From Marinomonas profundi (GTDB taxonomy: Bacteria > Pseudomonadota > Gammaproteobacteria > Pseudomonadales > Marinomonadaceae), in assembly GCF_020694005.1 (NCBI RefSeq), contig NZ_CP073013.1, positions 1,156,578-1,188,577 on the forward strand: a DNA stretch of 32,000 bases, given 5' to 3'. Under the pieces are notes generated by a model that worked only from the letters and a program-made list of their open reading frames with translations, was not told where the DNA came from and searched no databases. Positions within the stretch are counted from its first letter, which is position 1; each line of letters starts with the position of its first letter. A program made the position numbers and the translations under genes. Below, one piece after another: positions 738-21,696 of the stretch.

Positions 738-774
738 GCCCCACCACCTGTAAGCATCAAAACATGAGTAATCA

Positions 775-1905: not shown

Positions 1906-1918
1906 TACAGATCTTTCC

Positions 1919-3025
1919 TTACACCTTGTATGTCACTGTATCGGGGCGCTGACGATCAAAGTTTTCATTGGCCCACAACATCACCACCATTTCATCATCA
2001 CCGATATTCGTAATATCGTGCGACCAACCAGGCACAGTCTCTACTATCTCAGGCTGATCACCACAGGTGTTTATTTCCACAAATTCATCAGTCACAATAT
2101 GGCGAAAGCCAAAGCGCGCTTTCCCCTTGATAACAAGAAATTTCTCTGTTTTCACATGGTGATAGTGTCCACCGCGTGTCACACCTGGATGCGCCGTGAA
2201 AAATGAGAACTGGCCGGAATCACGTGTTTTCAGCATTTCAACAAAAGACCCTCTGGGATCTTCATGTTTATTAAGCGGGTAATTGAAATCGTTTGGGGAT
2301 ATATAGCTAATATAAGTGGCATACAGCACACGTGTAAAACCATCACCTACCGCTTCAGTGACTAAGGTTTCACGACTATTTTTGAATTTATAAAGCTGTT
2401 CAACTAGTTCACCCAACGTCGCTGTGTATATAGGGTCAACGCTAACATACAGTTTATCGGTTGGTTGATTTATCAGCAAATCGATGAAAGAGCTGATTAC
2501 CGCGCCAATATGAACTAAGCTAAGCTCTGTCGAAGGATCATTCACCTGAATAGGTAAACCATGGCTGATATTATGGCAAAAAGTCGCCACCGCAGAATTG
2601 TAATTTGGACGACACCATTTGCCAAAAACATTCGGCAAACGATAAATATAAACCTGATTGCCCGTCTCCATATACAAGTTCATCAAATGCATTTCGGCTT
2701 GTAGCTTGCTACGGCCATAAGCATTCGTTCGTTCAGCTTGGATAGATGAGGTAATTACAATAGGAATATTTCGCCCAGACGCCACAATAGCACTGCAAAT
2801 TTCAGCCGTTAGTTCCGAGTTTCCAATAAAAAATTCGCTTTCTTCATCAGGTCGATTAATACCAGCAAGATGAAAAATGAAGTCGGCTTCAGCAACTAAA
2901 TGGGATAGTTGACCATGATCTAATTCACGAGTGAACGGAAGAACCTCATGGCCACCCATTTTATTCAGCGTGACAACTAAATTTTTACCGATAAATCCGT
3001 TAGCTCCAGTAACCAAAACCTTCAT
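1919..3025 (-). CDS. fnlB: FnlB/Cap5F/WbjC-type reductase (SDR N-domain plus cupin-like C-domain) of UDP-L-FucNAc synthesis
   Basis: MKVLVTGANGFIGKN Rossmann motif. I moved the start to ATG 3025, which has a GGAGGA SD just upstream and lies 1 nt after the fnlA stop. The ORF-track start at 3061 would overlap fnlA by 35 nt. The C-terminal GGHYHH cupin-like segment matches Cap5F-type proteins. Confidence 0.85.
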   Translation of the reverse strand: MKVLVTGANGFIGKNLVVTLNKMGGHEVLPFTRELDHGQLSHLVAEADFIFHLAGINRPDEESEFFIGNSELTAEICSAIVASGRNIPIVITSSIQAERTNAYGRSKLQAEMHLMNLYMETGNQVYIYRLPNVFGKWCRPNYNSAVATFCHNISHGLPIQVNDPSTELSLVHIGAVISSFIDLLINQPTDKLYVSVDPIYTATLGELVEQLYKFKNSRETLVTEAVGDGFTRVLYATYISYISPNDFNYPLNKHEDPRGSFVEMLKTRDSGQFSFFTAHPGVTRGGHYHHVKTEKFLVIKGKARFGFRHIVTDEFVEINTCGDQPEIVETVPGWSHDITNIGDDEMVVMLWANENFDRQRPDTVTYKV

Positions 3026-3026
3026 T

Positions 3027-4061
3027 TTATTCCTCCGCAGCGACCCATTCGCCATCAACAATAGCCTGCATAAAGCTTAACTTAAGAAGCAATGCTTGCA
3101 TACCTGCCACACCCAAACGCTCAGTGTTGTGGGAATTGTAGTCTTCGGTACGTGAAATCACTTCTTCACCCACCTCAACAAACTTCGCATAATTCAAATC
3201 ACGTAGATCTGGCGGAACGCGGAAGTAATCGCCCATGTCTTCAGCGCAGGCCATTTCTTCTCGGCTCAATAACGCTTCATACAATTTTTCACCATGGCGT
3301 GTACCAATGATATTGATCGGGTGTTCTGGCTTATTAAGTAGTTGAGTTAAAGCTTGGGCCAAAACCTCTACCGTAGCAGCGGGGGCTTTCTGCACGAAAA
3401 TATCGCCATTGTTACCATGCTCGAAGGCATACAATACTAGATCAACAGCGTCAGCCAATGTCATCATAAAGCGTGTCATGTTTGGATCAGTAATGGTAAT
3501 AGGCTGTCCAGCACGAATCTGTTCAATAAACAATGGGATCACAGAACCGCGAGAGGCCATAACATTGCCATAACGTGTGCCGCAAATGACGGTCTTGGTA
3601 TCGTCTACCGTGCGTGACTTGGCAACGATAACCTTTTCCATCATGGCTTTCGAGATGCCCATGGCATTGATCGGATACACTGCTTTATCTGTACTCAGGC
3701 AAACAACACGATTAACACCACACTGAATTGCCGCCTCTAGCACGTTTTCTGTGCCTAGAACGTTGGTCTTAACTGCTTCTAAAGGATAAAATTCGCACGA
3801 AGGCACTTGTTTAAGCGCAGCGGCATGAAATATATAATCAACACCACGAGTGGCGTTTAATACGGATTGATAATCTCGCACATCGCCAATATAAAACTTT
3901 AACTTAGGATGATTGTACTTTTTGCGCATATCATCTTGCTTTTTCTCATCGCGAGAAAAAATACGAATTTCTTTAAGATCAGAATCTAAAAAACCTTTAA
4001 GAACAGCGTTACCAAAAGAACCTGTACCGCCTGTGATCATTAATATTTTATTAGAAAACAT
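3027..4061 (-). CDS. fnlA: UDP-GlcNAc 4,6-dehydratase/5-epimerase (FnlA/Cap5E/WbjB type)
   Basis: 344 aa. ILMITGGTGSFGNAV glycine-rich motif and overall Cap5E-like sequence. It is followed by fnlB and fnlC. Confidence 0.9.
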   Translation of the reverse strand: MFSNKILMITGGTGSFGNAVLKGFLDSDLKEIRIFSRDEKKQDDMRKKYNHPKLKFYIGDVRDYQSVLNATRGVDYIFHAAALKQVPSCEFYPLEAVKTNVLGTENVLEAAIQCGVNRVVCLSTDKAVYPINAMGISKAMMEKVIVAKSRTVDDTKTVICGTRYGNVMASRGSVIPLFIEQIRAGQPITITDPNMTRFMMTLADAVDLVLYAFEHGNNGDIFVQKAPAATVEVLAQALTQLLNKPEHPINIIGTRHGEKLYEALLSREEMACAEDMGDYFRVPPDLRDLNYAKFVEVGEEVISRTEDYNSHNTERLGVAGMQALLLKLSFMQAIVDGEWVAAEE

Positions 4062-4081
4062 AATTATTCCTTAACTTGAAG

Positions 4082-5242
4082 CTAGATATTAATATCATTT
4101 ACAATGTGCTTTTTATAAGCTCTATTCATTGCAAACATAAATAAAATAAAAAGATAAGCGTTAGGTGAAAAGATCAAACCTTTGAAGTTTAACCAAAAAC
4201 CAGCAAAAACCCATACAAAGAAGAAAGCTTTATTTCCGAATGCCCTAAAGCAAAGTATAACTATAAAAAATAGAAATAAGGTTGTATAAAAAACTCCACC
4301 ATAGTTTATTAATATTATCCAACCAGGGTCAACAGTAGAATTTAAACCCGGCAAAAACATATAATTACCATTACCTAAAATAAACTCTAAAAAATCAGCA
4401 TTTGTAAAAATGAAATGATCCTCAAAAATAATATTTATAGTTCTCATTCCACCACTAGAGAGTTCTTCTTGTAGGCGCTGTGGTAGGTAATCGACATAGT
4501 ATAAATAAATAAATACTAATATAATGAAAAACCAAAATGATAAAAATAAAAACCTAAAAAAATAGCGAGACTTGAAGCGAGTTAAAAAACCAAGAATCAA
4601 TGCCACTACAACATTATTGGAATTAAATAACTGAGTAAAAACGATAAAAAAATTAAAAACCTTCACCCTAAATAATGTCAATACTGTAAGCACCATAACG
4701 AATGGTGCTGTAAAATTAATCTCTGGCGTATAACCAAAACCTCTCGTATAATAATTCCACTCATAAATGATATTAACGCTATTTGACATACCCATAATGG
4801 AATAAATAAGTTCTTTACCACCTGGGTAATAAAAAGTAAAAAACCAAAAAAAAGTCTGTAGTAAAAAAACACTAAGAATTAATTTTTTTAACTTGTCATC
4901 ATCACCTTTTAAATAGTAACAAACAAAAAACGCAGAGGGAACAACTGACATAATAAAAATAGTCAGGGCCCTAACTGTAAATGAATTAGTTAGTTTATTA
5001 GCAAGAGCGCCTGTAGTAATATCAACACAAAACGAGTAAAGAAAAATAAAAGTATAAATAAAGATAAAACTTAAGCCTAATGCATTAATTAAAACCAATC
5101 TAAATCGTAAACTAAAAAGGAAAACACACCCTAAAAGACCCAAAAAAAAAGAGAAATAAAATGTTGTAAAAAAAACCGGTATCCGAAAAAAAACAATAAA
5201 AAAAAGAATTATAAAAAAAACGACTTTCATGAAAAAACCCAA
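4082..5242 (-). CDS. Polytopic membrane protein, probable O-antigen/repeat-unit polymerase (Wzy-like)
   Basis: 386 aa, extremely Phe/Ile/Leu-rich with many predicted TM segments and very AT-rich DNA. It sits in a locus that also has wzx. The start is ambiguous: TTG at 5242 or ATG at 5230. The call rests on context only. Confidence 0.5.
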   Translation of the reverse strand: MGFFMKVVFFIILFFIVFFRIPVFFTTFYFSFFLGLLGCVFLFSLRFRLVLINALGLSFIFIYTFIFLYSFCVDITTGALANKLTNSFTVRALTIFIMSVVPSAFFVCYYLKGDDDKLKKLILSVFLLQTFFWFFTFYYPGGKELIYSIMGMSNSVNIIYEWNYYTRGFGYTPEINFTAPFVMVLTVLTLFRVKVFNFFIVFTQLFNSNNVVVALILGFLTRFKSRYFFRFLFLSFWFFIILVFIYLYYVDYLPQRLQEELSSGGMRTINIIFEDHFIFTNADFLEFILGNGNYMFLPGLNSTVDPGWIILINYGGVFYTTLFLFFIVILCFRAFGNKAFFFVWVFAGFWLNFKGLIFSPNAYLFILFMFAMNRAYKKHIVNDINI

Positions 5243-5281
5243 TGAATCACTTTAAAGAAAAAACTGGTATATAACAAAAAT

Positions 5282-6283
5282 TCAAGACTTATCCTCCATA
5301 AAATAATCTGCTCTATTCTTTAATAAACTATAATGTTCCTTATGGGAAACCAACAAAAGCTCTTTTTTAAAACTGCTATAACTTCTAAATATCGTCACTA
5401 TTTTAAGAAAAAAACCAAAAACAAAACGATAAAATGCAATGTTAAAGAAAACATTAAGGAACTTATTTTTTTTTCGAAACAACCATAGTCTATTTTCAAG
5501 AACAAACCTAGAAAAAAAATTATCAGACCTTTCTATTAAATAATTATAAACTTTAACTTTGTCGTTAAAAAAACGTCCTTCAGCAGTAATATATGAAGAA
5601 CCAGATGTCCTTCTATAATAAACAAATACCTTATTACTTAGTGTAAATATAGAATCTGGATTCTTCTCTGCAATTGCAACCTGTAAAGGCCAATCTTCTA
5701 CTACATCATAATCCTTAAGAAAAGAGATTGTATCTGGATCAGTTAGATTTTTAAAATTGTAAAACATATTTGGCGCATTATTATTGGAAAGAAAGATAAA
5801 ACGATCAATTAATTTTTTTCCTCTGTATATATGGTGGGAGGAAATCACTTCCAAAGAGGTTTTGATACTTTCGTTGATGAAATTCTCAGTAAGAATTAAT
5901 GGGATACCACTCGAAAAAGAAACATTATCACTCAACGATGAATGTTCAAATATATTTTCGTAAGAGTAAACATCATCACCTGCTGTAATCTTCAGTCTCG
6001 TTGTATCAACATTCTCTAAGATATTTAGAACAGATGCGCATGTTCCAGAATTACTAGAGTTGAATATTTTTTTCACATTATTAAAAATAGAAAAATTCTC
6101 ATTAAGCCAATAAGAAAGGTATCTGACAGTATTATCTGTAGATGCATCATCATTTACTACCAAGTCTACTTCCCAATCATCCCCATAGCTATCAATCAGA
6201 TACTTTATACTTTCTAAGTGTTCAACAATGTATTCTTGGTGATTATAACAAAGCACTGCAAATGTAAATCGCTTTCTTGACAT
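5282..6283 (-). CDS. Glycosyltransferase family 2
   Basis: The N-terminus FTFAVLCYNHQEYIVEHLESI...VVNDDASTDNT is the classical GT2 (GT-A, DxD-type) signature. The ATG at 6283 is preferred over the adjacent TTG at 6286. Confidence 0.8.
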   Translation of the reverse strand: MSRKRFTFAVLCYNHQEYIVEHLESIKYLIDSYGDDWEVDLVVNDDASTDNTVRYLSYWLNENFSIFNNVKKIFNSSNSGTCASVLNILENVDTTRLKITAGDDVYSYENIFEHSSLSDNVSFSSGIPLILTENFINESIKTSLEVISSHHIYRGKKLIDRFIFLSNNNAPNMFYNFKNLTDPDTISFLKDYDVVEDWPLQVAIAEKNPDSIFTLSNKVFVYYRRTSGSSYITAEGRFFNDKVKVYNYLIERSDNFFSRFVLENRLWLFRKKNKFLNVFFNIAFYRFVFGFFLKIVTIFRSYSSFKKELLLVSHKEHYSLLKNRADYFMEDKS

Positions 6284-6714
6284 CAAAAATATCCTAAAAT
6301 CTAAACTTGAAATAAAACCAGTTAAATATTGACCAGCTGAAATACATCTAAGCAGAATAAAACATATGCTGCCTAAAACCCTCTAACTGAGAAAAAAATA
6401 TAATAAAATAGAAATTTTCATGTAATAAAATGACACCACTAAATGAAATCGTTGAGCCTACAGCTATTTTAACAACAAGGACAAGCGTTAAACCATCATT
6501 AATTTAAACCTAGTCAAATAACGAATCAAACATTAAAGTATGGCGCTTTCTCACTTCAGAAGACTAAAAATACTTCTTTAAACAATATATGTTCATACTT
6601 TTATATTTGTTGTAAAAAAGATACTAAATCCAGCAATTGATTTCGTCTACATAATGATTAGTATTATAATATTTATTGCCCCAAGTTAGAGCTGCTAAGA
6701 TTATCATGCGTCAT

Positions 6715-8151
6715 TTAATTTTTTATTTTACTATAAATCATACCAAAACTATTCAAAAAAAATTTATCACGCAGCACAAAAAGCATTGCTATATAAATAA
6801 TCGCGCCTAATGCTATTTTAACAAGCAATGTCAGTAACAAGCTATCGTTAGCTGAAATCAGGCCAATCGCGAAATACATAAGCGCTGCAGCAATGATGTA
6901 TTTGTACGCTATTTTTAATTGTGCTATTCCACCGAAACCAAAGAGCTTGCCCGGGTAATAAGAATTTATAAAAAATGCAATAAAAGAAGTACAGACCATG
7001 GCCCATGCTAACCCCTCAATACCGTAGGGCAATGCTATAAATAAGGCCGCCACAGTCATTGGTAATTTAGAAAGGTCTACTTTCAAAAATAAATCTGAGC
7101 GACCTATTGCGTTGAGTATATTTAGGTTAATTGAGCTTATTGGGGTAATTGACCTTGCAAAACATAAGGCGATTAAAACCGGTATAACAGGCAACCAGTC
7201 TTCACCTAAAAGTAACCTAACAAATTCATTTGATACCGCTGCAAAGCCAATAAGTAGCGGTACAGAAACCAACATCGTGATGGATATTAACTGTGTGTAT
7301 ACATTAACCAACCGCTCTCTATCATCTTTTATAGAGGTCATAATAGGGTATGTTACACCTTGCAATGTTGAGTTTATAAATTGTGTAGCGTAATTACTAA
7401 GATTTGTTGCTTGTGTAAAATAACCTACCTGAGTTGCATTAAAGTAACGCCCGACTAATGCAACATAAAGATTATTAACAAAAGTGGCAACAAAACCTGC
7501 AAGCATTAAATTAGAGCCAAATTTAAACAACCTATTAAATGACTCAGCACTAAAAATGAACTTAGGTAACCATTGGCAGTAAAACCATAGCACGATTCCG
7601 TTAAAAATAGATTTAGTTATTAGTAACCACACTAATGACCAGTAGCCATAACCAGCCATAGCCAAATAAATCCCTATACATGCACTCAGCAAAGTAGAAA
7701 TTGTATTGGCTATAGCCTGGCTTTTAAAATCTATATTAATAGTAAGCTTGGCACGAACCACAACAGTTAGAGAGCTTACTAAAATAACTAAAAACAAAAC
7801 CCTAGATATTTCAACTAACTCTGGCGCATTGTAAAAAGCCGAAATAAATGGGGCACAGAAATATAATAAAAAATACATTACTATACCCCAAAAAATATTA
7901 ACATAAAATATTGTAGAAGAATCTTCCTCTGTCAAATATTGGCTTCGCTGTATAAGCGCTTGGGCGAAACCATTATTCACCACGCTTTCAGCTAACAAGG
8001 TAAAAATAGTTAGCATTCCGATCAAACCAAAACTTTCTGGACCAATGATACGTGCAATAAAAATAGTCACAGCTAAATAACCTAGCTGGTTAATTAACTT
8101 ATCAGATAAACTCCAAACAACTCCATTTAATGCTTTAGCCCTAAGTGACAT
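6715..8151 (-). CDS. wzx: Wzx-type polysaccharide flippase (MOP/PST family)
   Basis: 478 aa polytopic protein. The N-terminus KALNGVVWSLSDKLINQLGYLAVTIFIARIIGPESFGL is typical of PST-family flippases. Confidence 0.8.
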   Translation of the reverse strand: MSLRAKALNGVVWSLSDKLINQLGYLAVTIFIARIIGPESFGLIGMLTIFTLLAESVVNNGFAQALIQRSQYLTEEDSSTIFYVNIFWGIVMYFLLYFCAPFISAFYNAPELVEISRVLFLVILVSSLTVVVRAKLTINIDFKSQAIANTISTLLSACIGIYLAMAGYGYWSLVWLLITKSIFNGIVLWFYCQWLPKFIFSAESFNRLFKFGSNLMLAGFVATFVNNLYVALVGRYFNATQVGYFTQATNLSNYATQFINSTLQGVTYPIMTSIKDDRERLVNVYTQLISITMLVSVPLLIGFAAVSNEFVRLLLGEDWLPVIPVLIALCFARSITPISSINLNILNAIGRSDLFLKVDLSKLPMTVAALFIALPYGIEGLAWAMVCTSFIAFFINSYYPGKLFGFGGIAQLKIAYKYIIAAALMYFAIGLISANDSLLLTLLVKIALGAIIYIAMLFVLRDKFFLNSFGMIYSKIKN

Positions 8152-8165
8152 ATGATTTAAATGAC

Positions 8166-9251
8166 CTATATAGTGAATATTATTTTATTTAGTAAAGGCA
8201 TTGTCATATCACCACTATAATTACCTACACGATCTGGATGAAACATCTCACTCTTCAAACTTTCAATTTGTGGATTACTAACATATTTAGCTAGACGATT
8301 ATCAAGATCCATACCCTCCAACATTAATTTTATTCGAAGTAAAAGATGTTTTTCTTTACTATCGGGTTTCATCAAAACATAATTGTGTATTAATCTTGGT
8401 AATGTAAAACTACATGCAAGGCCATGCGGCACACCATAGTGGCTTGTAAGTGGATATGATATTGAGTGCGCTATAGCTGTGCGAGTTTGGCTAATCGCCA
8501 GGCCTGCCAAAACGCTGGCATTTTGCATTGCTGTGCGTGCTTTCAAGTCTGAAGGTCTATTAAGCACTTGAGGTAATGCTTTTTCAGCCAGCTCCAGAGC
8601 CTGAATAGCAAAACTGCTGCTAACAGGGCTACGGTTGACATTCCATAACGATTCCAGTGCATGCGAGACCGCATCCAAACCTGTGTAGAGGGTTTCCTGG
8701 TCAGGTAGACCCAGTGTTAACTCTGGGTCAAGAAGTACCTTTTCTGGAAAGATTTGATCACCAATCACCGAGTATTTTTTATGCTGAGTCTGATCCCAGA
8801 CGGTAGCAAAAGGTGTTACTTCTGCACCTGTGCCTGAGGTGGTCGGAATCACCACCAAAGGCAGCTTTTGTTGCCAAACGTGTTTCTTGCCCTGGCGTAA
8901 AACTTCAGTCAGTGGCTGCTGCAATGCACTGGGTAGCGCAACAGCAAGCACCTTTGCTGCATCCAGCACACTCCCACCACCAATTGCAATAATACCCTGA
9001 AATTTTTGGCTGCGATAATGCTGAATAATCGCTTCTAAATCATCCAGCTCAGGGTTGGGTGTAACTTGGTCATGGACTATCAACTGCACATCAGATAACA
9101 AATACTGAATCTTTTCTGTCAGCCCACGACGTGTAAAACCTGCCGAAGTTACCAACAACCAACGACCAGGTGTTATCAACTGTGGCAGTTTTTCTAGACT
9201 ACCCGCCCCTGCAATCAAGGTGGCCGGATTATGATAGTGCCAGTCCTTCAT
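8166..9251 (-). CDS. Group III iron-containing alcohol dehydrogenase, putative phosphonoacetaldehyde reductase (FomC/PhpC-like)
   Basis: GGGSVLDAAK motif and a His-rich metal site (AHSISYPLTSHYGVPHG). There is a 4-bp ATGA overlap with the upstream phosphonopyruvate decarboxylase gene. Confidence 0.7.
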   Translation of the reverse strand: MKDWHYHNPATLIAGAGSLEKLPQLITPGRWLLVTSAGFTRRGLTEKIQYLLSDVQLIVHDQVTPNPELDDLEAIIQHYRSQKFQGIIAIGGGSVLDAAKVLAVALPSALQQPLTEVLRQGKKHVWQQKLPLVVIPTTSGTGAEVTPFATVWDQTQHKKYSVIGDQIFPEKVLLDPELTLGLPDQETLYTGLDAVSHALESLWNVNRSPVSSSFAIQALELAEKALPQVLNRPSDLKARTAMQNASVLAGLAISQTRTAIAHSISYPLTSHYGVPHGLACSFTLPRLIHNYVLMKPDSKEKHLLLRIKLMLEGMDLDNRLAKYVSNPQIESLKSEMFHPDRVGNYSGDMTMPLLNKIIFTI

Positions 9252-10366
9252 AAACCTGCTGCCTTCATGAAAGCAAGTTTGTTTTCTTCTGGGGTGCTGG
9301 TAGGCCTAGCCAAGTCATCGCGTGAACCCGTAGTGATTTTGATCTCAAACAGCATCGGTCCTGGTTGATGTTGAATTTCCTGCCAAGCTGTTTCAATGCC
9401 AGCTTGATCACTGGCACTCCAATAGCCCTTGTAGCCACTGGCGAGAGCAAGTGCTTTGAAATCGATGTTACCAGCTACGGTCGGCTGCCCACCCACTGAC
9501 TCATGAGCGGCATTGTTCAGGAGCACATGCACCATGTTTTTTGGAGCCACATCACCTATAATCGGCAATGCGCCCAAATGCATTAAAACCGAACCATCGC
9601 CATCAATGCAGACAACCTTTTTGCCTGGATTACCCAAGGCAGCACCCAGTGCAATAGAGGCTGTATGCCCCATGCCGCCGACTGTTAGAAAATCACGCTG
9701 GATTTCGCCCCGCTCAACACGTAATTCAAACACTTCTCGCGAGGTTTTCCCAGTCGTGCTGACCACCAGGCTAGAACCGGTTAGATTGAGCAAAGAGCGC
9801 AATGCATCTTCACGCTTCATTTGTGAAGGCGAAGTCGACTTGCGCATACTTTTGTATTGTGAGAAGGTGCCTTTGCGTACAAGAAAAGCGATGGCAGAAC
9901 CTGTTTCCACTACTTTTTGAAGTGCGTCCTTTAGCGTTGCTTCCAGATCTGTATCTTGATCTAGTACCCAGTAGGGTATCCCCAAAAGGTCCAACTGCTG
10001 TGGTGTAATCGCACCCTGTTTCACATGCTGTGGTTCATCCTTGATACCAGGTTCACCACGCCAGCCGATGATCATTACCAGGGGTATTTTGTAGACATGA
10101 GGATCAGTAATTGATGTCAATGGGTTAATCGTATTACCCAACCCTGAGTTTTGCATATAAACCGCAGCTAATTTCCCTGTGGTTAGATGATAACCCGCAG
10201 CCATGGCAATCGCATTACCTTCATTAGCTGTAATAATGTGTTCCCCAGTTCGACCGTGATCATCAACATATGCACAAAAATCTTTGAGCAAAGAATCGGG
10301 AACACCTGCAAAGAGACCGATACCGGCCTCTTGCAGTTTTGTATAAAAAATTCGAGGTTCAATCAT
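9248..10366 (-). CDS. ppd: Phosphonopyruvate decarboxylase (ThDP-dependent; Ppd/AepY/Fom2 type)
   Basis: 372 aa. The N-terminus LQEAGIGLFAGVPDSLLKDFCAYV is typical of Ppd. It carries the ThDP motif GDGSVLMHLG...LLNNAAHES and lies immediately downstream of the PEP mutase. Confidence 0.85.
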   Translation of the reverse strand: MIEPRIFYTKLQEAGIGLFAGVPDSLLKDFCAYVDDHGRTGEHIITANEGNAIAMAAGYHLTTGKLAAVYMQNSGLGNTINPLTSITDPHVYKIPLVMIIGWRGEPGIKDEPQHVKQGAITPQQLDLLGIPYWVLDQDTDLEATLKDALQKVVETGSAIAFLVRKGTFSQYKSMRKSTSPSQMKREDALRSLLNLTGSSLVVSTTGKTSREVFELRVERGEIQRDFLTVGGMGHTASIALGAALGNPGKKVVCIDGDGSVLMHLGALPIIGDVAPKNMVHVLLNNAAHESVGGQPTVAGNIDFKALALASGYKGYWSASDQAGIETAWQEIQHQPGPMLFEIKITTGSRDDLARPTSTPEENKLAFMKAAGL

Positions 10367-10375
10367 AAAAATGCC

Positions 10376-11680
10376 TTATTTGGTTCCAGGAATCAACTCA
10401 AGAATATCTTTGAGTGGCAACATCTTATCGTCACATTCTTTAGATCGCTGATTCGTTAAAATAGACTTTGCAGTTTCTAACATGGCTGGGTAAGCAGAAC
10501 GTAATAATTGGTTAGCGTAAATCACAATATTAGCTCCCTTTTCTTGCAATTCAGCTTCTGTTACCGAGTTGTAGCTTGAAGGAACCACAACTAACGGCTT
10601 GCGATTTAGAAATTTATTGTAGTGATCACAGAACTCGAAAATCTCTGCGGGGTCTTTTTTCCGACTGTGAATCATAATCCCATCAGCACCAGCATTGAGA
10701 TAAGCCTGTGCACGCTTAACTGCATCATCCATACCTTGATCGAGAATCAAACTTTCAATACGGGCTATAATCATGAAATCATCGGTCGCTTGGGCTTTTT
10801 TACCCGCCATAATCTTGGCACAGAAGTTATCAATAGAATCCTGAGTCTGCGGAACATCGGTACCAAAGAGTGAGTTTTTCTTCAGACCTGTCTTATCTTC
10901 GATAATCGCAGCTGATACACCCAAGCGCTCAAGAGTACGGACAGTAAATTCAAAATGCTCTGACTGCCCACCAGTATCAGCATCATAAACAATAGGCTTG
11001 GTGGTGACTTCAAGCACCTCATTTAAGGTATTCATTCGAGCAGAAACATCTACTGCCTCGATATCTGGTTTACCTTTTGCAGTCGAATCAGTCAGTGAAC
11101 TTCCCCACATACCGTCGAATTCACGAATACCTTCGGGTGTTTCTACCTTTGTATTCTCAATAATCAAACCACTAAGTGCATTATGGATATCTATGAAACG
11201 CAACAATGGCTTAACCTGGAGCATGCGGCGTAATGACTTTAAACGTAAATCTGGTGTAGTACCAATTTCCCGTAATGCCTTATTAAGCTGTGTAGAAGAA
11301 ATTCCAGCAGTATAGGGCACCTCAATTAGTTCACCACCCCATTCAGCTAGTGTATCGATAACGCGTTGACGAGTCTCACGCTGAACGCCTTCTCGCCAAT
11401 CATCGCCATGAACAACATAATCAGGTTTAAGCTTTATCAAATTGGGTACATAATCGAGTGTATCTTGCACTACAACACGTGATACACCCTTAATATTCTC
11501 GATGATAATCTTACGCTGCTCAAACTCCATATATGGAATTCTTTTGTAACTGGCAATAGCTTTGTCTGTTAGCAACCCTACAACTACTTCACCATGCTCT
11601 GCTGCTTTTTTTAATATATTTAGATGACCAGGGTGCACTAAATCTGCACTCATTCCAACATAGACAACTTTATTGCTCAT
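10376..11680 (-). CDS. ppm: Bifunctional cytidylyltransferase / phosphoenolpyruvate phosphomutase (Fom1-like architecture)
   Basis: The N-terminal ~130 aa carry [16 protein letters not shown] (HxGH) and YTAGISST (RTxGISTT-like), the GCT/TagD-type cytidylyltransferase signatures. The C-terminal domain contains [12 protein letters not shown], the PEP-mutase-specific EDKx5NS motif. Confidence 0.85.
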
Positions 11681-12975
11681 AATAACATCCTTAGCTCATT
11701 GATTATTTTATCAGAGGGCCCCCCCCCCGAGAAAAAAGGTTTTATATTAACGTCATGAAAATTATTGATGGGTGCATTATCCACTTCCTTTCTATTATTA
11801 TCAATTACAAAATCCACAAAGTTAATAATAGAGAGTTTGTTTACACCATGTTTACAGCAAGCCAATGCAGACAAGCCAAAACCATTTAAGTTATTTCTAG
11901 TATTAGGATTCAATAAATAAAGAACAGGTTTTTTTAAATACAAATATTCCGCTAAAAAAGAACCGCAGTCATGAATAATAGCATCTGAACTTATGAATAA
12001 ATCATCATATTCACCTTCATCAAGCTGCGAGCATTCTCCATCACTCCACATTCTATAGTATTTATCTGTTTTCTCTTTACCCCAATCTGGATGGTTATAC
12101 AATTTTGATTTTAATATTGGATGGGGTTTAAAGGCCCACTGCACATTTTCTTTATAACTATCTACTAAATCCAACATCAATTCCGCATAAATTAAGAAAT
12201 TAGATAGTTGTAACTCAGCATTTTCGATAGTGTGATGTGGCGCATAAATAATTTTAAACTTATTTTGTGCCTTTTTCCATGGACAAGCAACCAGATTATT
12301 CTCAAACAATGATTCACAAGCAGGATAGCCCGTTAAAACACAATTCATACCATCATTACTCGAAACAACCCTAGCTAAATTCATTGAATCAGAATGTGGC
12401 ATAAAAATCTTCCACATCAAATTGTGAAAAAGGTGATTATAAAGCGATTGATCATTACCGTGTGATGTAACCAAGTAAAAATAAGGCACGTAACAGCTTA
12501 AATAATTTAAATACGCATCTTCGTAATATTCTTTTCTGGTTAAGTTATGTGGATTAGTAAAAAACACAATATCAGGTTTAATTTCACTTAGGCCCAGCCA
12601 TGTGCCATCACTATTTAACGACTTAAGAACGGGATAACCCTTTTCTTTAAAAAAAGTGAACGTTTTATCCATATCTTCAAGCATTCTTTCTTCTCCATAT
12701 AAGGTATATGGACACACTAAGATTTCTGGTTCAAAGTAGGGATCTTCTAGCATTTTTCTAAAAACAGGATCAACTTTCCACACACTTTTATGGATAGCCA
12801 GGAATACCACCTTAATTTTTTCCTTTCCCTTAATACTAGACAAAAGCTGTTGATGCTTATGCTGCATATGCTGAGCAAGCTTTCTTTTTCTGGGGTTATC
12901 TAACAACTTAACTTTAAGCGGATTAAATAACTGCTTAAATATGTTAATTGACGATCGAAATATTTTTCTTAGCAT
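11677..12975 (-). CDS. Putative phospho(no)transferase, TagB/TagF (CDP-glycerol glycerophosphotransferase)-like
   Basis: 432 aa. The C-terminal half has the family layout IIYAPHHT ... FKPHPILK ... [26 protein letters not shown], which parallels the YAPT.R / HP / TDYSS..fD....KP blocks of the family. The stop overlaps the ppm start (ATGA). The family assignment is by eye only. Confidence 0.5.
11719..11728 (-). repeat. Homopolymeric tract, C10 on + strand (G10 in the mRNA sense) inside the 3' end of CDS 11677-12975
   Basis: Counted directly: gagggcc cccccccc ga. It encodes S-G-G-G-P, 17 codons before the stop, in an otherwise very AT-rich gene. Confidence 0.95.
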
Positions 12976-13187
12976 TCTTACTAACTCTTAAAATTTGATT
13001 TTTTTATAACACTAGTTCATTAACAAATAAAATGGACGCTAAATGAAAAATTAACTATTATTACTCTCAATTGAAATCAAAAAATACAGCCTATTCGAAG
13101 TTTGTTACATCTATAGATGTCTTTTAGAAATCAATCTAACTATCGAAAACTAAATTTATTATTTTCGCATTACTTGATCATCAATTC

Positions 13188-14441
13188 CTATATTAAATTT
13201 AATATTTTATTTATATCAACTGTATAATCAGCCTGAATATCTTCATTATTGCTCGATTCACATTTAAAAAACTTAAGATCACATCCATAATATTTAGCAA
13301 TAGTTGAATAACATGAAAAGTCACTCGCATTATCGCTCAACCAACTCAGACCTATAGTACCTTTATTCACATAAATCAGATTAGTCCATCCTGCACCTGA
13401 TGCACCAACCAGATAGTCAACATTTTGAAATAGATATACCTGCTGAAAAAATGAGAGGTCTTCTAAAAAAACTGGAAAAAAATCTTTTTTAACTAATATT
13501 TCTAACACTTCATTTTGGTTATATTTTCTCACTGATCCTTCTTTTCGACAAAGGAATACTTTTTTATATTTTATTTTATCAGCCTCACTATCTAGGAACG
13601 ACAAATATTCTGCACTATTCAATATCGACTCTCGCAAAAAGTCTACACTTTCTCTATCTATAAAAAAAAAGTTCTTTTTAAAATCAGCACCATGCGCGAC
13701 ATTAAAAACAACATTTGAAGGTGATGTAATCGTGTACAATTCGTTAACCAAAGCTAGGCGATTTTCATTTAAATATATAATCTCATACCTTTCCTTTAAA
13801 ATAACTGAGACCATCATAGAGAAGCTTTCAATTTTCTTTGCATACTCAGGTAGAATTATTGTTATTTTTTCTTTGTTTAGAGCTGATTCAAGAAAATATT
13901 TTAACTTGGTTACTATCTCAATCGTCCAATGATAATAATTCCATGAACCGTTTCCACCTATAAATAAAGCTCTTTCAATTTCAACAACTTTAAAACCCGT
14001 TTTAATTATTGAAAAAAAACTATTATGGCAGCTTATATGACCTGTTGAATAATTGCATTGATCTACATGAATGTGAGGCAATCTCTCCAAAACTACAGCG
14101 TCTTTTAAGACAATATGAGAACTTTTAGCATGAACATAACCTGTCTTCAGCTTATATAAATTTACATCTGGCATCTCAACACTGAATTTATTTTCCACCG
14201 TATAACAAGGTTCATAAGCATCTGTTGAACTACTCTGTTTAAGCGTTTCTATTGTGCTTAGAGTATCAAGCCACACTATAGGTCTAACATTTCTTGCAAC
14301 CACTTTCCTAATGAATAAACTACTACTTTCATTAGCTTTAAAAATTAAAGCATTATATTTTCTACTCGTTTTTTTCTTAATCGAAATCAGTGAATTCCAT
14401 TTCTCTTTAGGCAAATATTTTTTTAGTATTTTTTTTATCAT
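13188..14441 (-). CDS. Glycosyltransferase family 61 / DUF563-like
   Basis: 417 aa. [19 protein letters not shown] resembles the N-x-YHW-x-xE motif of DUF563/GT61 proteins. The DNA is AT-rich. The start overlaps the stop of the aminotransferase gene (ATGA). Confidence 0.55.
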
Positions 14442-15544
14442 TGAAAAAAATTCACTATTATTTTGACCTGCTCATTACACATTACCGGACTAATCGGCAA
14501 GCTGAGTATTTTTTGATGGATACTTTCTGTTATTGGATACTCACTGCTATTCCACGCTTTATAGGCATTTTGCTTATGAGGCGGTATTGGGTAGTGTATC
14601 AGTGTTTGTATGCCTGCTTCGGTAAGCTGTTTTTGTAGCTTGTCGCGTTCTTTTGTTTGTATGACGAATAAATGAAAAGCGTGGTTGGCTAGGCTTTCTA
14701 GGGTTGAATCTGGACTTATTGGTAATTTTATCGTTGGGTTGGTGATGCCTTTTGCGTAGGCGATAGCGACTTCACGGCGACGTTGTGTTTCTGTATCTAG
14801 ATGGCGAAGCTTTACTCTCAACATGGCGGCTTGCATTTCATCTAGTCGGCTGTTTACACCTTGGTAGAGGTTTTCGTATTTTTTATGGCTGCCGTAGTTG
14901 CCTAGTGCTCGTATCGTCTGTGCGAGTTCATCGTCACTGGTCGTAATAGCACCTGCGTCACCTAACGCACCGAGGTTTTTACCTGGATAAAAACTAAAGC
15001 CACTGGCATGGCCCCAATTACCTGCTTTTATTCCATTAATACTGGCGCCATGGGCTTGCGCTGAGTCTTCTAATACTAATAAATTATGACGGCTAGCAAT
15101 GTCCATAATGGCGGGCATGTCTGCCAGCTGGCCGTACAAATGCACGGGTAAAATAACTCGTGTTTTTTCTGTAACAGCAGCTTCTGCATTAATGGGGCAA
15201 ATATTATAAGTCGCCATGTCTGGCTCAACCAATACTGGAATTAAGCGATTTTCGGTGATAGCAAGAATGCTAGCGATATAAGTATTCGCAGGTACGATGA
15301 CTTCATCACCCTCTTTTAGTTTACCCATTTCCTTCCATGCACGCAGTGTCAGAGTTAAAGCATCCAAACCGTTCGCTACACCAATACAGAGTTTAGTACC
15401 GCAATACTCTGCAAACTCTTGTTCAAAGGCTTTTACTTCTGTGCCTTGAACGTACCAGCCCGAATCAATAACACGCGTCGCCGCTTCTACCAGTTCATCT
15501 CGATACTGGGCATTAATTGCTTTAAGATCTAAAAATGGGATCAT
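14438..15544 (-). CDS. DegT/DnrJ/EryC1-type PLP sugar aminotransferase (FdtB/QdtB-like, dTDP-3-keto-6-deoxyhexose 3-aminotransferase)
   Basis: 368 aa. The [18 protein letters not shown]...GWYVQG N-terminus is typical of the family. It sits in a run with a WxcM-type isomerase and an LbH acetyltransferase. Confidence 0.85.
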
Positions 15545-16002
15545 TTCGTATACCTAATTATTTTTGCAGGGTTACCAACAACAACAGCGTAATCTGGAAC
15601 GTCTTTTGTTACTACTGAACCAGCGCCAATCATAGCTTCAATACCAATCGTAACACCTGGTAATATTGTGGCATTAGCACCAATACTTGACCCTCTTTTT
15701 AAAGTTATCCCTAGAAACTTCTCTGGATATACTTTAGAGCGCGGCATTAAATCATTCGTAAAAGTGGCATTTGGACCAATAAATACATCATCCTCTATAA
15801 GAGTCCCATCCCATAGAAATACACCTGATTTAATAGTTACGTTATTACCAATTACAACATCTCCCTCAATTAGGGCATGGGCACATACGTTACAATTTCT
15901 TCCAATTTTTGCACCTTTTAAGATGACCACAAACTGCCATATTTTTGTATTCTCACCAATGACGCTTGATGCAACATCTGCAAGTGGATGAATGTAACTC
16001 AT
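15541..16002 (-). CDS. Left-handed beta-helix N-acetyltransferase (FdtC/QdtC-like)
   Basis: 153 aa with hexapeptide repeats ([49 protein letters not shown]). It has 4-bp overlaps with both neighbours. Confidence 0.8.
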
Positions 16003-16400
16003 GATTTAGTTTTCTCTTTAAATTCGGCGTAGTCACGAATGTAGTCGCTTTCATCGTAGTGCTTGCTAGCTAACACTAAAAGCACGCAGTCTTCGCTAAA
16101 ATCATGCATTTCTCGCCATACCATGTCTTCGATTAAAATGCCTTTTGTGGCCGAATCCAACCACACTTCTTCACGATGCTTACCATCATCTAAAACCATA
16201 CGGCATCGACCTGTCACACAAACCGCTACTTGTTTTAGCTGCTTATGCGCATGAAAACCACGAGCAACACCTTGCTGAGTACCAAATATGTAGTACACGC
16301 GTTTAATATCAAATGGAATGGATTGCTGGCTCTCTAACGCGACTAATGAACCACGATCATCACCTAAAGGTGGGAAACTGATTAATTGAATTAAACTCAC
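15999..16400 (-). CDS. dTDP-4-dehydro-6-deoxyglucose 3,4-ketoisomerase (FdtA/QdtA, WxcM-like cupin)
   Basis: 133 aa. [11 protein letters not shown]...IKRVYYIFG...ARGFHAHK is the typical family core. I cannot distinguish Fdt (galacto) from Qdt (gluco) products by eye. Confidence 0.85.
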
Positions 16401-17278
16401 TCGCTTTCCTTAATAATTTCCAACAAATACTGGCCATAACTGTTTTTTTGTAGCGGTTTAGCTAGCATTTTAAGCTCTTCTTTTTTAAACCAACCTTGAT
16501 AAAAAGCGATCTCTTCTAAACAGGCGATTTTATAGCCTTGGCGCTTTTCGATGGTTTCGACAAACTGTGCCGCCTCTAATAAGCTTTCGTGGGTGCCCGT
16601 ATCTAACCAAGCAAAACCACGACCTAGCATTTCGACATTCAGCTTATTCTGCTTTAGGTACATTTCGTTCAGGCAAGTAATTTCTAGCTCACCACGTTCA
16701 GATGGCTGCACTTGTTTGGCCAACTGTACGACCGAGTTATCGTAAAAATACAACCCAGTCACTGCAAAATGCGATTTCGGTTTAGTAGGTTTCTCTTCAA
16801 TCGAAATGGCTTTTTTATTCGCATCAAACTCCACAACGCCAAAACGCTCAGGGTCTTTTACCTGATAGCCAAACACCGTCGCACCCTGACCATTTTTCGC
16901 GTTTTCAACCGCGTGTTTTAGCTTAGGGGTAAAGCCTTGGCCGTAGAAAATATTATCCCCTAAGACCAAACATACATCATCGCTGCCTATAAAGTCTTCA
17001 CCTAGAATAAAGGCTTGGGCAAGCCCGTCAGGACTGGGCTGCACCACGTAACTCAATTCAATACCAAATTTCGAGCCGTCACCTAAAAGTCGCTGAAAAC
17101 TACTTTGGTCCTCCGGTGTAGTAATGATGAGAATTTCTCGAATTCCCGCCAGCATTAAAACTGAAATGGGGTAATACACCATTGGCTTATCGTAAACAGG
17201 TAACAACTGCTTAGACACACCTATTGTAATAGGATAAAGCCGAGTACCTGAGCCACCCGCTAACACTATGCCTTTCAT
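16397..17278 (-). CDS. rmlA: Glucose-1-phosphate thymidylyltransferase
   Basis: [18 protein letters not shown] start. The ATG at 17278 overlaps the rmlB stop as ATGA. The ORF-track start at 17335 adds 19 unlikely residues. Confidence 0.92.
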
Positions 17279-18342
17279 TGGTTGTTTACCCCTAAGCGTT
17301 CCATCGAGTAAGAACCGTCTAACACACGGCTCCACCAGTTTTCATTGGCGAGATACCATTGCACGGTTTTGCGCAGCCCTGTTTCAAAGGTTTCTGCTGG
17401 TGTCCAGCCTAGTGTTTTTTCAATTTTACTGGCGTCAATGGCGTAGCGAACATCGTGGCCTGGGCGGTCTGTTACATAGGTAATCAAATCATGATATTGA
17501 GCGACACCGGCTGGTTTGTTCGGTACTAGCTCTTCTAACAAGCGGCAAATAGTCTTTACGACATCTATGTTGGCTTTTTCATTGTGGCCGCCAATGTTGT
17601 AGGTCTCACCTACTTCGCCTTCTGTGACGACTTTGTATAAGGCACGAGCGTGGTCTTCTACATACAGCCAATCGCGTATTTGCAAGCCATTGCCATAAAC
17701 TGGTAATGGCTTACCTTTTAAGGCATTTAAGATCACTAAAGGAATCAATTTTTCTGGAAAGTGATAAGGCCCGTAGTTGTTAGAGCAATTGGTCACGATT
17801 GTCGGGAAGCCATAGGTTCTCCGCCATGCCCGTACCAAATGATCTGAACTTGCCTTACTGGCTGAATATGGGGAGCTTGGCGCATAGGCAGTGTCTTCGG
17901 TAAATAAGTCTTCTGGCCCCTCTAAATCGCCATACACTTCATCGGTTGAAATATGATGAAAACGGAAAGCACTTTTACGATCTGATTCTAGTCCTAACCA
18001 AAACTGACGACTGGCTTCTAACAGTGTGTAAGTACCAATAATATTGGTTTCAATAAAGGCTGCTGGGCCGTCTATTGAACGATCAACATGACTTTCTGCC
18101 GCTAAATGCATCACAGCGTCTGGTTGGTGTGTTTCGAAAACACTATCTAGCGCTGTCCTATCGCAAATATCCACCTGCTCAAAAGCATAACGATCTGACT
18201 TGTCCACATTCGCAAGGCTTTCAAGGTTCCCCGCGTAAGTCAGCTTATCGACATTCACCACACTGTCTTGGGTGTTTTGGATAATATGGCGGATCACTGC
18301 AGAACCAATAAAACCCGCACCGCCAGTTACTAGAATTTTCAT
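17275..18342 (-). CDS. rmlB: dTDP-glucose 4,6-dehydratase
   Basis: 355 aa. [16 protein letters not shown], YxxxK (YSASK) and overall RmlB-like sequence. Confidence 0.93.
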
Positions 18343-18574: not shown

Positions 18575-18895
18575 TTACGTTTTTACTTCTTTGCGCAGTT
18601 GTTCTATTTCTTGTTCTAGAGCTTCGTATTCGGCGATTTTTCTTTGTAAAAAGCGCTGTGTTAGGGTGACTTTTTCTTCTATGCCTTTTGGGGTAAGTAG
18701 GTATAAGTAACCGGTTTTGTTGGCGCTGTTTTTAAAGTTGTCTGCTTTTATTGAGCCTTTTTCAATGAGGGCCTTTAGGCAAAAATTGGCTTTGCCTAGG
18801 CTTATGCCCAGTCGTTTGGCGAGCTCACGCTGGCTGAGGTCTGGGTCTTGTTGCAGTTCTTTTAGAATTTTGTAGCGGTATTCGTCCGTTAGCAT
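18575..18895 (-). CDS. Small MarR/wHTH-family regulator of the EPS-associated type
   Basis: 106 aa. YRYKILKELQQDPDLSQRELAKRLGISLGKANFCLKALIEKG is a wHTH, followed by a C-terminal coiled coil. This matches short regulators found at the head of polysaccharide loci. Confidence 0.7.
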   Translation of the reverse strand: MLTDEYRYKILKELQQDPDLSQRELAKRLGISLGKANFCLKALIEKGSIKADNFKNSANKTGYLYLLTPKGIEEKVTLTQRFLQRKIAEYEALEQEIEQLRKEVKT

Positions 18896-19032
18896 GTTTG
18901 CACCTTGGCGATGCGTGTTAACAAAGAGAAATAGGCACGGAAAGAAGTGGTGTTTTGTGGTGTGAGTAAGCTTTCCATGCGTTTGCCTCGTTTGATATTG
19001 ATCGTTGTGTTTATAAATAAAAGAGCTATTGA

Positions 19033-19073
19033 CCCCATCCTAACCTTCCCCTTGGAAGTGATAAGGGGAAGGG
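19033..19073 (-). repeat. Isolated inverted copy of hairpin 1 of the 115-bp repeat family
   Basis: ccccatcctaaccttcccc ttggaagtgataa ggggaaggg. It is the reverse complement of the ccttcccc...ggggaaggttaggatgggg part of the 23401-26775 units, with a variant loop. Confidence 0.8.
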
Positions 19074-19287
19074 ACAAATATATGCTCTGTTCAATTGGTG
19101 AACGATGATAATTTAAGAAGGGGAATTATGCAAATAATGTTTTTGAAAATTGTTTGTAAAGTGGACGTTTTTTACACGTTTTGGTTATATGGATAGAAAC
19201 GAAATTCGTTTTACGTTTTGGTTGATGCGGTAAATTGGGCGATGATGGTTTGTTTTCGTCGACCGTTATCCGGTGTTGGTGTATTTA

Positions 19288-20271: not shown

Positions 20272-20386
20272 GAAATGTTAAAAACCTGTTTTTTGACAGC
20301 GAATGAAAAGTTCAGCCTTTGATGCTAAACCTTATTTGATTAACAAACAACGAAAGACCGGATCCTACCCTAACCTTCTTCTGAAT

Positions 20387-20485
20387 GTCAGATAAGCCTC
20401 GTGCCTCGTCTTATCTGACCTACGTGTGGTTGGTGTGGATCATATGATTGGTGATTTCGTGATGTTTTTGTAGGCCGGATGAGGG
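20387..20485. repeat. REP doublet (reverse copy 20387-20424, GT-rich spacer, truncated forward copy 20470-20485)
   Basis: gtcagataag cctcgtgcctcgt cttatctgac ctacg has a perfect 10-bp stem. The spacer tgtggttggtgtggatcatatgattggtgatttcgtgatgttttt resembles the spacer at 28437-28485. It is followed by gtaggccggatgaggg. Confidence 0.8.
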
Positions 20486-20595
20486 ATGTTGTGTAGAGTT
20501 GGTTTGTATTGTGTTTTGTAGGGCATCATGAGCGAAGTGTAATGTGCCGTTGGTGGTTTCGTTTACGTCACGTTCATCTTCTACCGTCACTTTCA

Positions 20596-20638
20596 TTTTC
20601 AAGTAAAGCGCCTCGTACCTCGCCTCATCTGACCTACG
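20596..20638 (-). repeat. REP-like element (long form, reverse orientation)
   Basis: ttttcaagtaaagcgcctcgtacctcgcctcatctgacctacg. It parallels 28383-28436 and 28575-28627. Confidence 0.8.
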
Positions 20639-20658
20639 GGTGGGTTGGTTAGGTTTTC

Positions 20659-21446: not shown

Positions 21447-21696
21447 TTTGACTACTCCGTCGCTGATTTTAATCGATAGTACGTCTTATTCATTGCCGAT
21501 ATTTTTATAAAGAAGCGTTTTCATGTCTTTTCAGATTACACCTCATACCTCTTCAAAACTGCGATTTTTTCGTGTCAATCAACATACCAAGCCCCTTTTC
21601 AGTTTCTTGAAAATAAGTATACCTATGTTAACAAAATAATCATTTCCTCTTTTTGACTCGGTCCTTTGCGATTTCGCTTTCGTACATGCTGTTTTC

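Follow-up and report, generated by a model that had tools for sequence, protein, structure and literature searches.

The capsule of Campylobacter jejuni carries O-methyl phosphoramidate, whose donor is synthesized by Cj1415-Cj1418 and which is attached by the transferases Cj1421/Cj1422. Phosphonoglycans containing 2-hydroxyethylphosphonate (HEP) reportedly occur in the actinomycetes Glycomyces sp. and Stackebrandtia nassauensis, as Yu et al. are said to have described in 2014. In Streptomyces wedmorensis/fradiae, fosfomycin biosynthesis begins with Fom1, a PF01467 cytidylyltransferase fused to a phosphoenolpyruvate (PEP) mutase, Fom2 and FomC, which yield HEP linked to cytidine monophosphate (CMP-HEP). 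TagF, TagB and TarL, which use CDP-glycerol or CDP-ribitol to build teichoic acids, and the TagF-like capsule polymerases are PF04464 proteins of the GT-B fold, and the donor of TagF is a CDP-alditol. In the Pnt pathway (Rice et al., 2019; PMC6697681), 2-aminoethylphosphonate (AEP) is made by Ppm, Ppd and an AEP transaminase, activated with CMP by PntC and, as proposed, moved to a surface glycan by LicD-like transfer; the step after CMP activation, which brings phosphonates to bacterial surfaces, was called enigmatic (PMC6697681). The locus described here stems from Marinomonas profundi and lies in a stretch of 32,000 nucleotides (assembly GCF_020694005.1, contig NZ_CP073013.1, positions 1,156,578 to 1,188,577), referred to as the window. 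It combines a gene for a TagF-like protein with genes for a Fom1-type fusion of cytidylyltransferase and PEP mutase (CyT-Ppm), a phosphonopyruvate decarboxylase (Ppd) and an iron-dependent alcohol dehydrogenase (Fe-ADH). We assign a probability of roughly 0.68 to the reading, predicted from the sequence, that these four genes form a self-contained cassette which puts HEP on a Wzx/Wzy glycan via the TagF-like transferase.

The fusion protein is composed of a CTP_transf_like domain (PF01467, residues 11-132) and a PEP_mutase domain (PF13714, residues 151-408), and it matched TIGR02320 PEP_mutase with 408.6 bits (cutoff 319.55). In the translation, the mutase domain carries the ten-residue motif EDKxxxxxNS and the N-terminal domain YTAGISST; motif stretches of 12 and 14 residues were read in the fusion protein as well. 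Against the solved cytidylyltransferase domain of Fom1 (CyTase; PDB 5x3d) the N-terminal domain scored 205 bits (E 1.6e-59, 63% identity, 87/138), against TagD (1coz) only 39 bits. The decarboxylase was recognized at equivalog level by TIGR03297 (453.8 bits, cutoff 312.5) and possesses TPP_enzyme_N and TPP_enzyme_C domains with the thiamine diphosphate motif GDG...NN. The third enzyme is a Fe-ADH with the motif GGGSVLDAAK. A preliminary description of this DNA had named the same three enzyme types, a Fom1-like N-terminal domain and a dehydrogenase instead of an aminotransferase, all of which the family searches bore out. Its suggestion that the Fe-ADH is of the phosphonate type held in part: the best NCBIfam match was the phosphonate-cluster family TIGR03405 (Phn_Fe-ADH), 183 bits ahead of the metabolic dehydrogenases with ErcA as runner-up (188 bits), but the score of 371.3 bits stayed under the cutoff of 423.7. 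In about 60 related loci a Fe-ADH gene likewise succeeds ppd, at sequence identities of 30-68%.

An AEP transaminase (Aminotran_5, PhnW type) was not found in the window, where the sole aminotransferase of the cluster is the DegT/FdtB-type sugar enzyme, and an AEP pathway was rejected for want of this gene. Likewise, in agreement with the preliminary description, no Fom3 radical-SAM enzyme or epoxidase (Fom4) was detected; FomD was absent too, and all open reading frames (ORFs) from position 1 to 18342 were assigned to glycan or HEP functions. Lacking tailoring genes and set in a context of glycan synthesis, the cluster was rejected as a fosfomycin-like small-molecule cluster. Among the window proteins scanned there was neither a stand-alone TagD nor a LicD (PF04991), the sole PF01467 domain being of the Fom1 type, and the cluster contains no other nucleotidyltransferase for a phospho-head group, IspD-type and LicC-type enzymes included. 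No complete E. coli genome matched 8166-12975 in a megablast search. That the cassette makes and cytidylylates HEP, as these sequence assignments suggest, is the part of the reading in which we place more confidence than in the whole. The Fe-ADH score under the family cutoff weighs against it, and PF01467-Ppm fusions occur together with AEP transaminases as well (locus L040 below; PMC8942020).

HEP or CMP-HEP could also be a mere intermediate which genes outside the window convert to methylphosphonate, hydroxymethylphosphonate or a small-molecule phosphonate. In Streptomyces the product of the Fom1 CyTase is a transient intermediate (PMC6697681, PMC8158854), in marine microbes HEP is the precursor of methylphosphonate (PMC9381506), and our analysis covered 32 kb of the genome. 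However, genes of the MpnS/HepD type, radical-SAM genes and epoxidase genes were found neither in or beside the cluster nor in the syntenic cassettes of relatives, with glycan genes on one side of the cassette and wzx on the other; such a fate of HEP therefore appears very unlikely. Because of its position in a Wzx/Wzy locus and its coupling to a transferase gene, the cassette is predicted to supply CMP-HEP as a surface-glycan donor and not as an antibiotic intermediate.

The donor of the TagF-like protein was approached by comparison of the genes which adjoin the transferase in related loci. The family yielded 2155 matches, and in 88 loci anchored on it the neighbours of the transferase were classified; divergent TagD genes escape a tblastn search in which the Fom1-type CyTase is the sole query, and they were detected with TagD queries. 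All seven of the closest relatives with readable context (L001 Pseudomonas sp. C27, L007 Aliarcobacter, L090 and L169-L172; 55-61% identity) have the TagF-like gene followed by those for CyT-Ppm, Ppd and Fe-ADH, in this order. In relatives with an identity of 54% or less the same slot holds other donor modules, and each version of the slot contains a nucleotidyltransferase. In many Gammaproteobacteria and others (L002, L003, L008 and further loci) it is a stand-alone TagD-like PF01467 protein, indicative of CDP-glycerol, which in L003 (Aeromonas veronii) scored 153.7 bits on the TagD equivalog TIGR01518. Wohlfahrtiimonas (L024) has a ribitol-5-phosphate cytidylyltransferase with a short-chain dehydrogenase/reductase (SDR), Prevotellaceae (L040) a set of Ppm, Ppd, AEP transaminase and PntC, L016 an HMGL-like aldolase with CTP_transf_3 and HAD proteins, and Vibrio metschnikovii an NTP transferase with a HAD protein. 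A five-gene phosphoramidate-like module fills the slot in Marinobacter, Pseudidiomarina, Thiomicrorhabdus, Endozoicomonas and Halomonas. The donor modules seen thus comprise those for CDP-glycerol, CDP-ribitol, CMP-HEP, CMP-AEP and a phosphoramidate-like group. For at least 73 of 99 family members a donor module lies within 7 kb of the transferase, and a neighbour-joining tree groups the transferases by the type of donor module, the window protein falling into the HEP clade. Because TagD and other cytidylyltransferase modules fill the same slot in orthologous cassettes, and because the transferase clades follow the donor type, CMP-HEP is proposed as donor of the TagF-like enzyme; this part of the preliminary description has thereby gained support in silico. 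The metagenome contig Ga0209317_1000099 (L146, 5763-13557) contains two tandem pairs, a TagF-like gene with TagD-like and SDR genes followed by a TagF-like gene with an HEP triad. This locus can serve as a natural control, since it appears to have arisen by duplication and to provide either transferase with a separate donor module.

Several of the slot versions deserve a description of their own. In L040 (5583-11224, a metagenome-assembled genome of Xylanibacter ruminicola) and in L042, both from Prevotellaceae, a transferase of the same subfamily stands directly after CyT-Ppm, Ppd, Aminotran_5 and the PntC-like NTP_transf_3, and the subfamily may handle CMP-AEP too. The five-gene module, present in L015 (10001-17078, Marinobacter), L017, L021, L023, L025, L026, L011 and L013, encodes a PRK05849 PPDK-like (glutamine-kinase-like) kinase (881 bits), a protein of 131 amino acids, a formyltransferase-like protein, NTP_transf_3 and a GATase related to gamma-glutamyl-CDP-amidate hydrolase (113 bits, under the cutoff). 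Kinase and GATase are Cj1418-like and Cj1417-like, respectively, and together with the NTP-transferase gene they follow directly downstream of relatives of the window transferase. The module resembles the Campylobacter phosphoramidate pathway, a further case of a cytidine-activated non-sugar head group that is not part of the window, and its sequence suggests phosphoramidate-type glycan decoration outside Campylobacter in marine Gammaproteobacteria. A separate TagF-like clade, found in L016 (11248-14134, Sulfurospirillum) and L007 (13953-16213, Aliarcobacter), pairs with an HMGL-like aldolase of 525 amino acids, a CTP_transf_3 cytidylyltransferase and a HAD hydrolase or methyltransferase. The metagenome contig L171 (498-12393, SRR27278187) combines the TagF-like gene and the HEP triad without fdt genes; it is flanked by genes for a pilin, FimB, a Wzy_C protein of 588 amino acids and Bac_transf on one side and for Wzx and glycosyltransferases on the other, and may represent a type IV pilin glycosylation locus with HEP.

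Viewed from the triad, the partnership is less exclusive. The triad is very common in metagenomes: a search with the fusion protein gave more than 591 relatives at 67% identity or more among the matches listed, and the order of CyT-Ppm, Ppd and Fe-ADH was constant almost everywhere. In the 43 metagenome loci that have a flank of 6 kb or more, examined with six query sequences, a PF04464 gene was present near the triad in 12, often directly after the dehydrogenase gene, and belonged to the subfamily of the window protein or to two other subfamilies. LicD was encoded nearby in 12/43 loci, and neither LicD nor PF04464 in 19/43, a count which depends on the six queries and is possibly an overestimate. 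The HEP triad has TagF-like enzymes as a repeated, though not as its sole, partner, and the pairing in the window has parallels elsewhere.

These numbers weigh against a fixed relation of triad and transferase, as do some of the loci found through the transferase. Stutzerimonas stutzeri 24a13 (L012, 1609-15831) has both an HEP triad and TagD before a transferase of the TagD clade, with a canonical PF04464 gene further along (two PF04464 genes in all), and in Pseudidiomarina planktonica (L023, 6372-16991) a single transferase of the phosphoramidate clade stands between an HEP triad and a phosphoramidate-like module; in both loci donor modules outnumber matching transferases. L007 has LicD encoded immediately upstream of its fusion gene. 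Moreover, the grouping of the clades by donor could partly reflect co-inheritance of linked genes. It is thus conceivable that the cassette makes CMP-HEP and a different enzyme, GT61-like or encoded elsewhere, transfers it, while the TagF-like protein uses a donor made elsewhere: of the 43 triad loci, 12 use LicD and 19 have no candidate of either family nearby, and in L012 and L023 the triads stand beside TagF-like proteins of other donor clades. Within the window, on the other hand, there is neither LicD nor a TagD, IspD-type or LicC-type nucleotidyltransferase. The stop codon of the TagF-like gene overlaps the start codon of the mutase gene (ATGA), and all seven nearest relatives keep the transferase with the triad, even where fdt genes are missing (L171). 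We consider transfer by another enzyme unlikely and prefer the TagF-like protein as CMP-HEP:glycan transferase, a role which its sequence and context make probable, to a lesser degree than the reading as a whole.

The TagF-like protein, identical to NCBI HGG82_15315 of Marinomonas sp. M1K-6, matched PF04464 Glyphos_transf in residues 211-353 (cutoff 22.1 bits), and most of its homologs have a precomputed PF04464 assignment. NCBIfam gave no match for it. An AlphaFold2 model built with 26 homologs (pLDDT 89.4, pTM 0.87) has a GT-B fold, for which Foldseek matched TagF (3l7l/3l7j) at E 1.5e-9 with TM-scores of 0.52-0.55. The TagF residues were mapped in a chain via the canonical PF04464 protein encoded at 14551-15831 of L012, which can be aligned to TagF and TarL, and conservation was counted over 99 relatives; the profile-profile step of this mapping is weak (hhalign E 0.014). 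H584 of TagF (LRMHY) aligns with H285 of the window protein (FKPHP), conserved in 99/99, and the TDYSS motif to H335-D336-C-G-S339 (HDCGS), with D336 in 99/99 and S339 in 98/99. YAPTWR becomes YAPH247H248T, with H247 in 97/99, and the catalytic base H444 aligns with H143, a position occupied by His in 37/99 and by Tyr in 58/99. The mapping is suggestive, and the protein is a PF04464 relative, as the preliminary description had supposed in calling it TagB/F-like; judged by its sequence it is a very divergent member.

The distance to characterized members speaks against the assigned function. The PF04464 match is weak (27 bits), the direct hhalign comparison to the canonical member poor, and neither sequence nor profile searches of the PDB gave anything meaningful. 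Foldseek ranks UDP-GlcNAc 2-epimerases, GT-B proteins too, slightly above TagF (E 1e-11), with all TM-scores at about 0.5-0.56, and the position of the TagF base, a histidine in the window protein, is mostly tyrosine in the relatives. In addition, the family is more widely associated with fdtA/B/C genes than with donor modules: fdtA, fdtB and fdtC occur within 10 kb of most members in Proteobacteria, Bacteroidota, Clostridia, Melainabacteria and the candidate phyla radiation. The protein might accordingly be a glycosyltransferase or other GT-B enzyme for the dTDP-3-acetamido-3,6-dideoxyhexose made by FdtA/B/C, its link to phosphonates being incidental, and the epimerase-like fold, the variable H444 position and the fdt linkage across phyla would all fit. 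Six loci without nearby fdt genes (L009, L011, L013, L023, L038 and L171) nevertheless keep the cytidylyltransferase module. The neighbour of the transferase is nearly always a module for head-group activation, which the clades track, and the PF04464 match comes with conserved putative equivalents of H584 and TDYSS. We consider a role as glycosyltransferase very unlikely. For a phosphonyl transferase, the family-wide fdt linkage may point to the acceptor sugar.

For the cassette as a whole we infer the following route. The C-terminal domain of the fusion protein would convert PEP to phosphonopyruvate, Ppd would decarboxylate this to phosphonoacetaldehyde, and the Fe-ADH would reduce the aldehyde to HEP, which the Fom1-type N-terminal domain would couple with cytidine triphosphate to give CMP-HEP. 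From this donor the TagF-like protein would transfer the hydroxyethylphosphonyl group to a sugar hydroxyl of the undecaprenyl-diphosphate-linked repeat unit at the cytoplasmic face, releasing CMP, in a chemistry like that of glycerol-phosphate transfer from CDP-glycerol. The decorated unit, probably containing N-acetyl-L-fucosamine (L-FucNAc) and Fuc3NAc or Qui3NAc, would then be flipped by Wzx and polymerized by Wzy. A single addition is favoured because the protein of about 430 amino acids has no polymerase N-domain, is encoded in a Wzx/Wzy context and has sister clades with non-extendable head groups. Repeated action, with the 2-hydroxyl of the attached HEP as next acceptor, would produce an oligo- or poly(2-hydroxyethylphosphonate) chain; it is the least probable of the proposals considered here. 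Such a chain, if it exists, would be a teichoic-acid analogue with C-P bonds in its backbone, and we know of no description of a poly(2-hydroxyethylphosphonate) polymer.

All sizeable ORFs from position 1 to about 18342 are encoded on the minus strand and are part of one glycan locus (Table 1). In the direction of transcription rmlB, rmlA, fdtA, fdtC, fdtB and a gene for a GT61-like glycosyltransferase (GT) are followed by the spacer, the four-gene cassette, wzx, the GT2 gene, the Wzy candidate, fnlA, fnlB, fnlC and a partial GT4-like gene at the window edge. Based on their sequences, fdtA/fdtC/fdtB are predicted to serve the synthesis of dTDP-3-acetamido-3,6-dideoxyhexose (Fuc3NAc or Qui3NAc) and fnlA/fnlB/fnlC that of UDP-L-FucNAc. 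Flippase, GT2, GT61-like and partial GT4 genes, rmlAB, fdtACB, fnlABC and the Wzy candidate together are the features of a Wzx/Wzy-dependent locus, as the preliminary description had it, either for an O-antigen or for a capsule; an initiating transferase, Wzz and export genes were not found in the 32 kb. The genes of the cassette are tightly packed, with a 4-nt overlap between the Fe-ADH and ppd genes and a distance of 9 nt from ppm to ppd on its downstream side. Most relatives have the TagF-like gene immediately behind fdtB, whereas in the window the GT61-like gene and the spacer intervene; the spacer may be the junction of the phosphonate cassette or contain its promoter. The GC content is 28-30% across wzy, GT2 and part of wzx (4001-7000) and 41-48% across the phosphonate genes (8001-11000), which is consistent with a mosaic locus of parts with different origin. 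The window Wzx is 56-76% identical to Wzx proteins encoded downstream of the donor module in related cassettes.

Table 1. Features of the glycan locus with window coordinates and supporting evidence.
Feature	Position	Strand	Evidence
Partial GT4 (WbuB-like) gene, extending past the window start	~1-737	-	259-aa open frame; GT4 assignment by sequence appearance
fnlC	775-1905	-	fnlB and fnlC together: NF047837 597 bits, wecB-type 2-epimerase 228 bits
fnlB	1919-3061	-	as for fnlC
fnlA	3027-4061	-	TIGR04130 FnlA 668 bits
Wzy candidate, 386 aa	4082-5242	-	about 10 hydrophobic segments, without family match
GT2 glycosyltransferase	5282-6286	-	PF00535 28 bits
Wzx flippase	6715-8151	-	Polysacc_synt_3 276.7 bits
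Fe-dependent alcohol dehydrogenase (PhpC/FomC-like)	8166-9251	-	PF00465 + PF25137
Phosphonopyruvate decarboxylase (Ppd/Fom2-like)	9248-10366	-	TIGR03297
Fom1-type CyT-Ppm fusion (CyTase ~residues 1-140, PEP mutase ~147-434)	10376-11680	-	PF01467 + PF13714
TagF-like (PF04464) transferase, 432 aa	11677-12975	-	Pfam Glyphos_transf 27.0 bits
AT-rich spacer, 212 bp, 5' of the TagF-like gene	12976-13187	.	sequence read
GT61-like glycosyltransferase	13188-14441	-	PF04577 51.4 bits
fdtB	14438-15544	-	DegT_DnrJ_EryC1 362 bits
fdtC	15541-16002	-	hexapeptide acetyltransferase
fdtA	15999-16400	-	PF05523 FdtA 176 bits
rmlA	16397-17335	-	TIGR01207 505 bits
rmlB	17275-18342	-	NF007582 697 bits

Beyond the glycan locus the window holds a patch of accessory genes (18575-23377 and 26796-28244). 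It includes genes for an HTH_24 regulator, a Fic protein (19288-20271), a DUF559 protein and, at 20659-21446, an NTP_transf_2 protein of 99 amino acids with a partner of 163 amino acids. A beta-CASP/MBL RNase is encoded at 21839-23377, with type VII Cas14 (293 bits, cutoff 800) and aCPSF1 as best NCBIfam matches. Between the two parts of the patch, at 23401-26776, a 115-bp tandem repeat (98-99% matches; 4.1, 2.0 and 1.9 copies) is split twice by the same IS3-family insertion sequence (IS) with a period of 1460 bp. The first copy comprises orfA at 23921-24220 and orfB at 24277-25089, the second orfA at 25381-25680 and orfB at 25737-26549. It seems that the element either entered the repeat unit twice at an identical site or was tandemly duplicated together with the repeat.

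Compared to the described systems, the locus shares with Fom1-Fom2-FomC the three enzyme types and the fusion architecture, and differs from it by the missing Fom3, Fom4 and FomD, by its Gram-negative marine host and by the transferase-coupled position in a Wzx/Wzy locus. With TagF, TagB and TarL the window protein has the PF04464 family, the GT-B fold and the putative equivalents of H584 and TDYSS in common, and in both cases an acceptor hydroxyl is predicted to attack the phosphorus beside CMP, with CMP as leaving group. The window protein is the divergent one, shorter by the polymerase N-domain, with YAPHHT for YAPTWR and a variable H444 position in its family, and its predicted donor is not a CDP-alditol but the phosphonate anhydride CMP-HEP, probably used for a single side-group addition. 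The Pnt pathway also makes a phosphonate, activates it with CMP and moves it to a surface glycan, and cytidylyltransferase-Ppm fusions are the norm there as well. It leads to AEP instead of HEP (Fe-ADH branch), employs a PF12804 (LicC-type) instead of a PF01467 (Fom1-type) cytidylyltransferase, and has LicD as proposed transferase instead of a PF04464 candidate. The actinomycete HEP glycans have the same predicted end product, a HEP-esterified polysaccharide; those polysaccharides are exopolysaccharides or of obscure biological source, while the predicted producer in our case is a culturable marine gammaproteobacterium and the predicted carrier an O-antigen or capsule repeat unit.

Parts of this picture were known before. 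PF01467-Ppm fusions make up 23.6% of Ppm proteins, and the chemistry of the Fom1 CyTase is published (PMC6697681). HEP-type ppm neighbourhoods account for 8.5% of the ppm neighbourhoods in complete genomes, some pathogens included (PMC8942020), and in marine pepM-aepY-phpC neighbourhoods the presence of glycosyltransferase and LicD-type genes was reported (PMC9381506). The idea of a HEP glycan put forward in the preliminary description therefore had precedent, as surveys already contain HEP-type ppm neighbourhoods linked to surface glycans (PMC8942020, PMC9381506), and as of 2026 HEP glycans themselves are on record only for two actinomycetes, the sole organisms from which they were purified, and for marine dissolved organic matter (PMC13576164). 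In the open-access literature searched we found no characterized phosphonyl transferase and no paper in which this activity is assigned to a PF04464 enzyme or the donor swap is described. The claim of a new combination of donor and transferase stands in so far as no publication describing the pairing was found; as an arrangement of genes it recurs in genomes and metagenomes. The locus joins the known themes of phosphonoglycans and teichoic-type head-group transfer, recurs in nature and is not categorically new.

The locus and its relatives nominate a widespread PF04464 subfamily as the missing phosphonyl transferase, with HEP as the group transferred and, in the case of Prevotellaceae, AEP. 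The nomination follows from the natural swap in orthologous cassettes, which differ mainly in the donor module. Such a subfamily could serve to put hydrolysis-resistant phosphonate groups on engineered glycans. HEP polysaccharide esters make a major contribution, so far unexplained, to marine high-molecular-weight dissolved organic phosphorus, and they feed aerobic methane production (PMC9381506, PMC8931226). With a culturable marine Marinomonas that carries a compact four-gene cassette predicted for HEP, both the source of these esters and the enzymology of their formation would be open to direct test.

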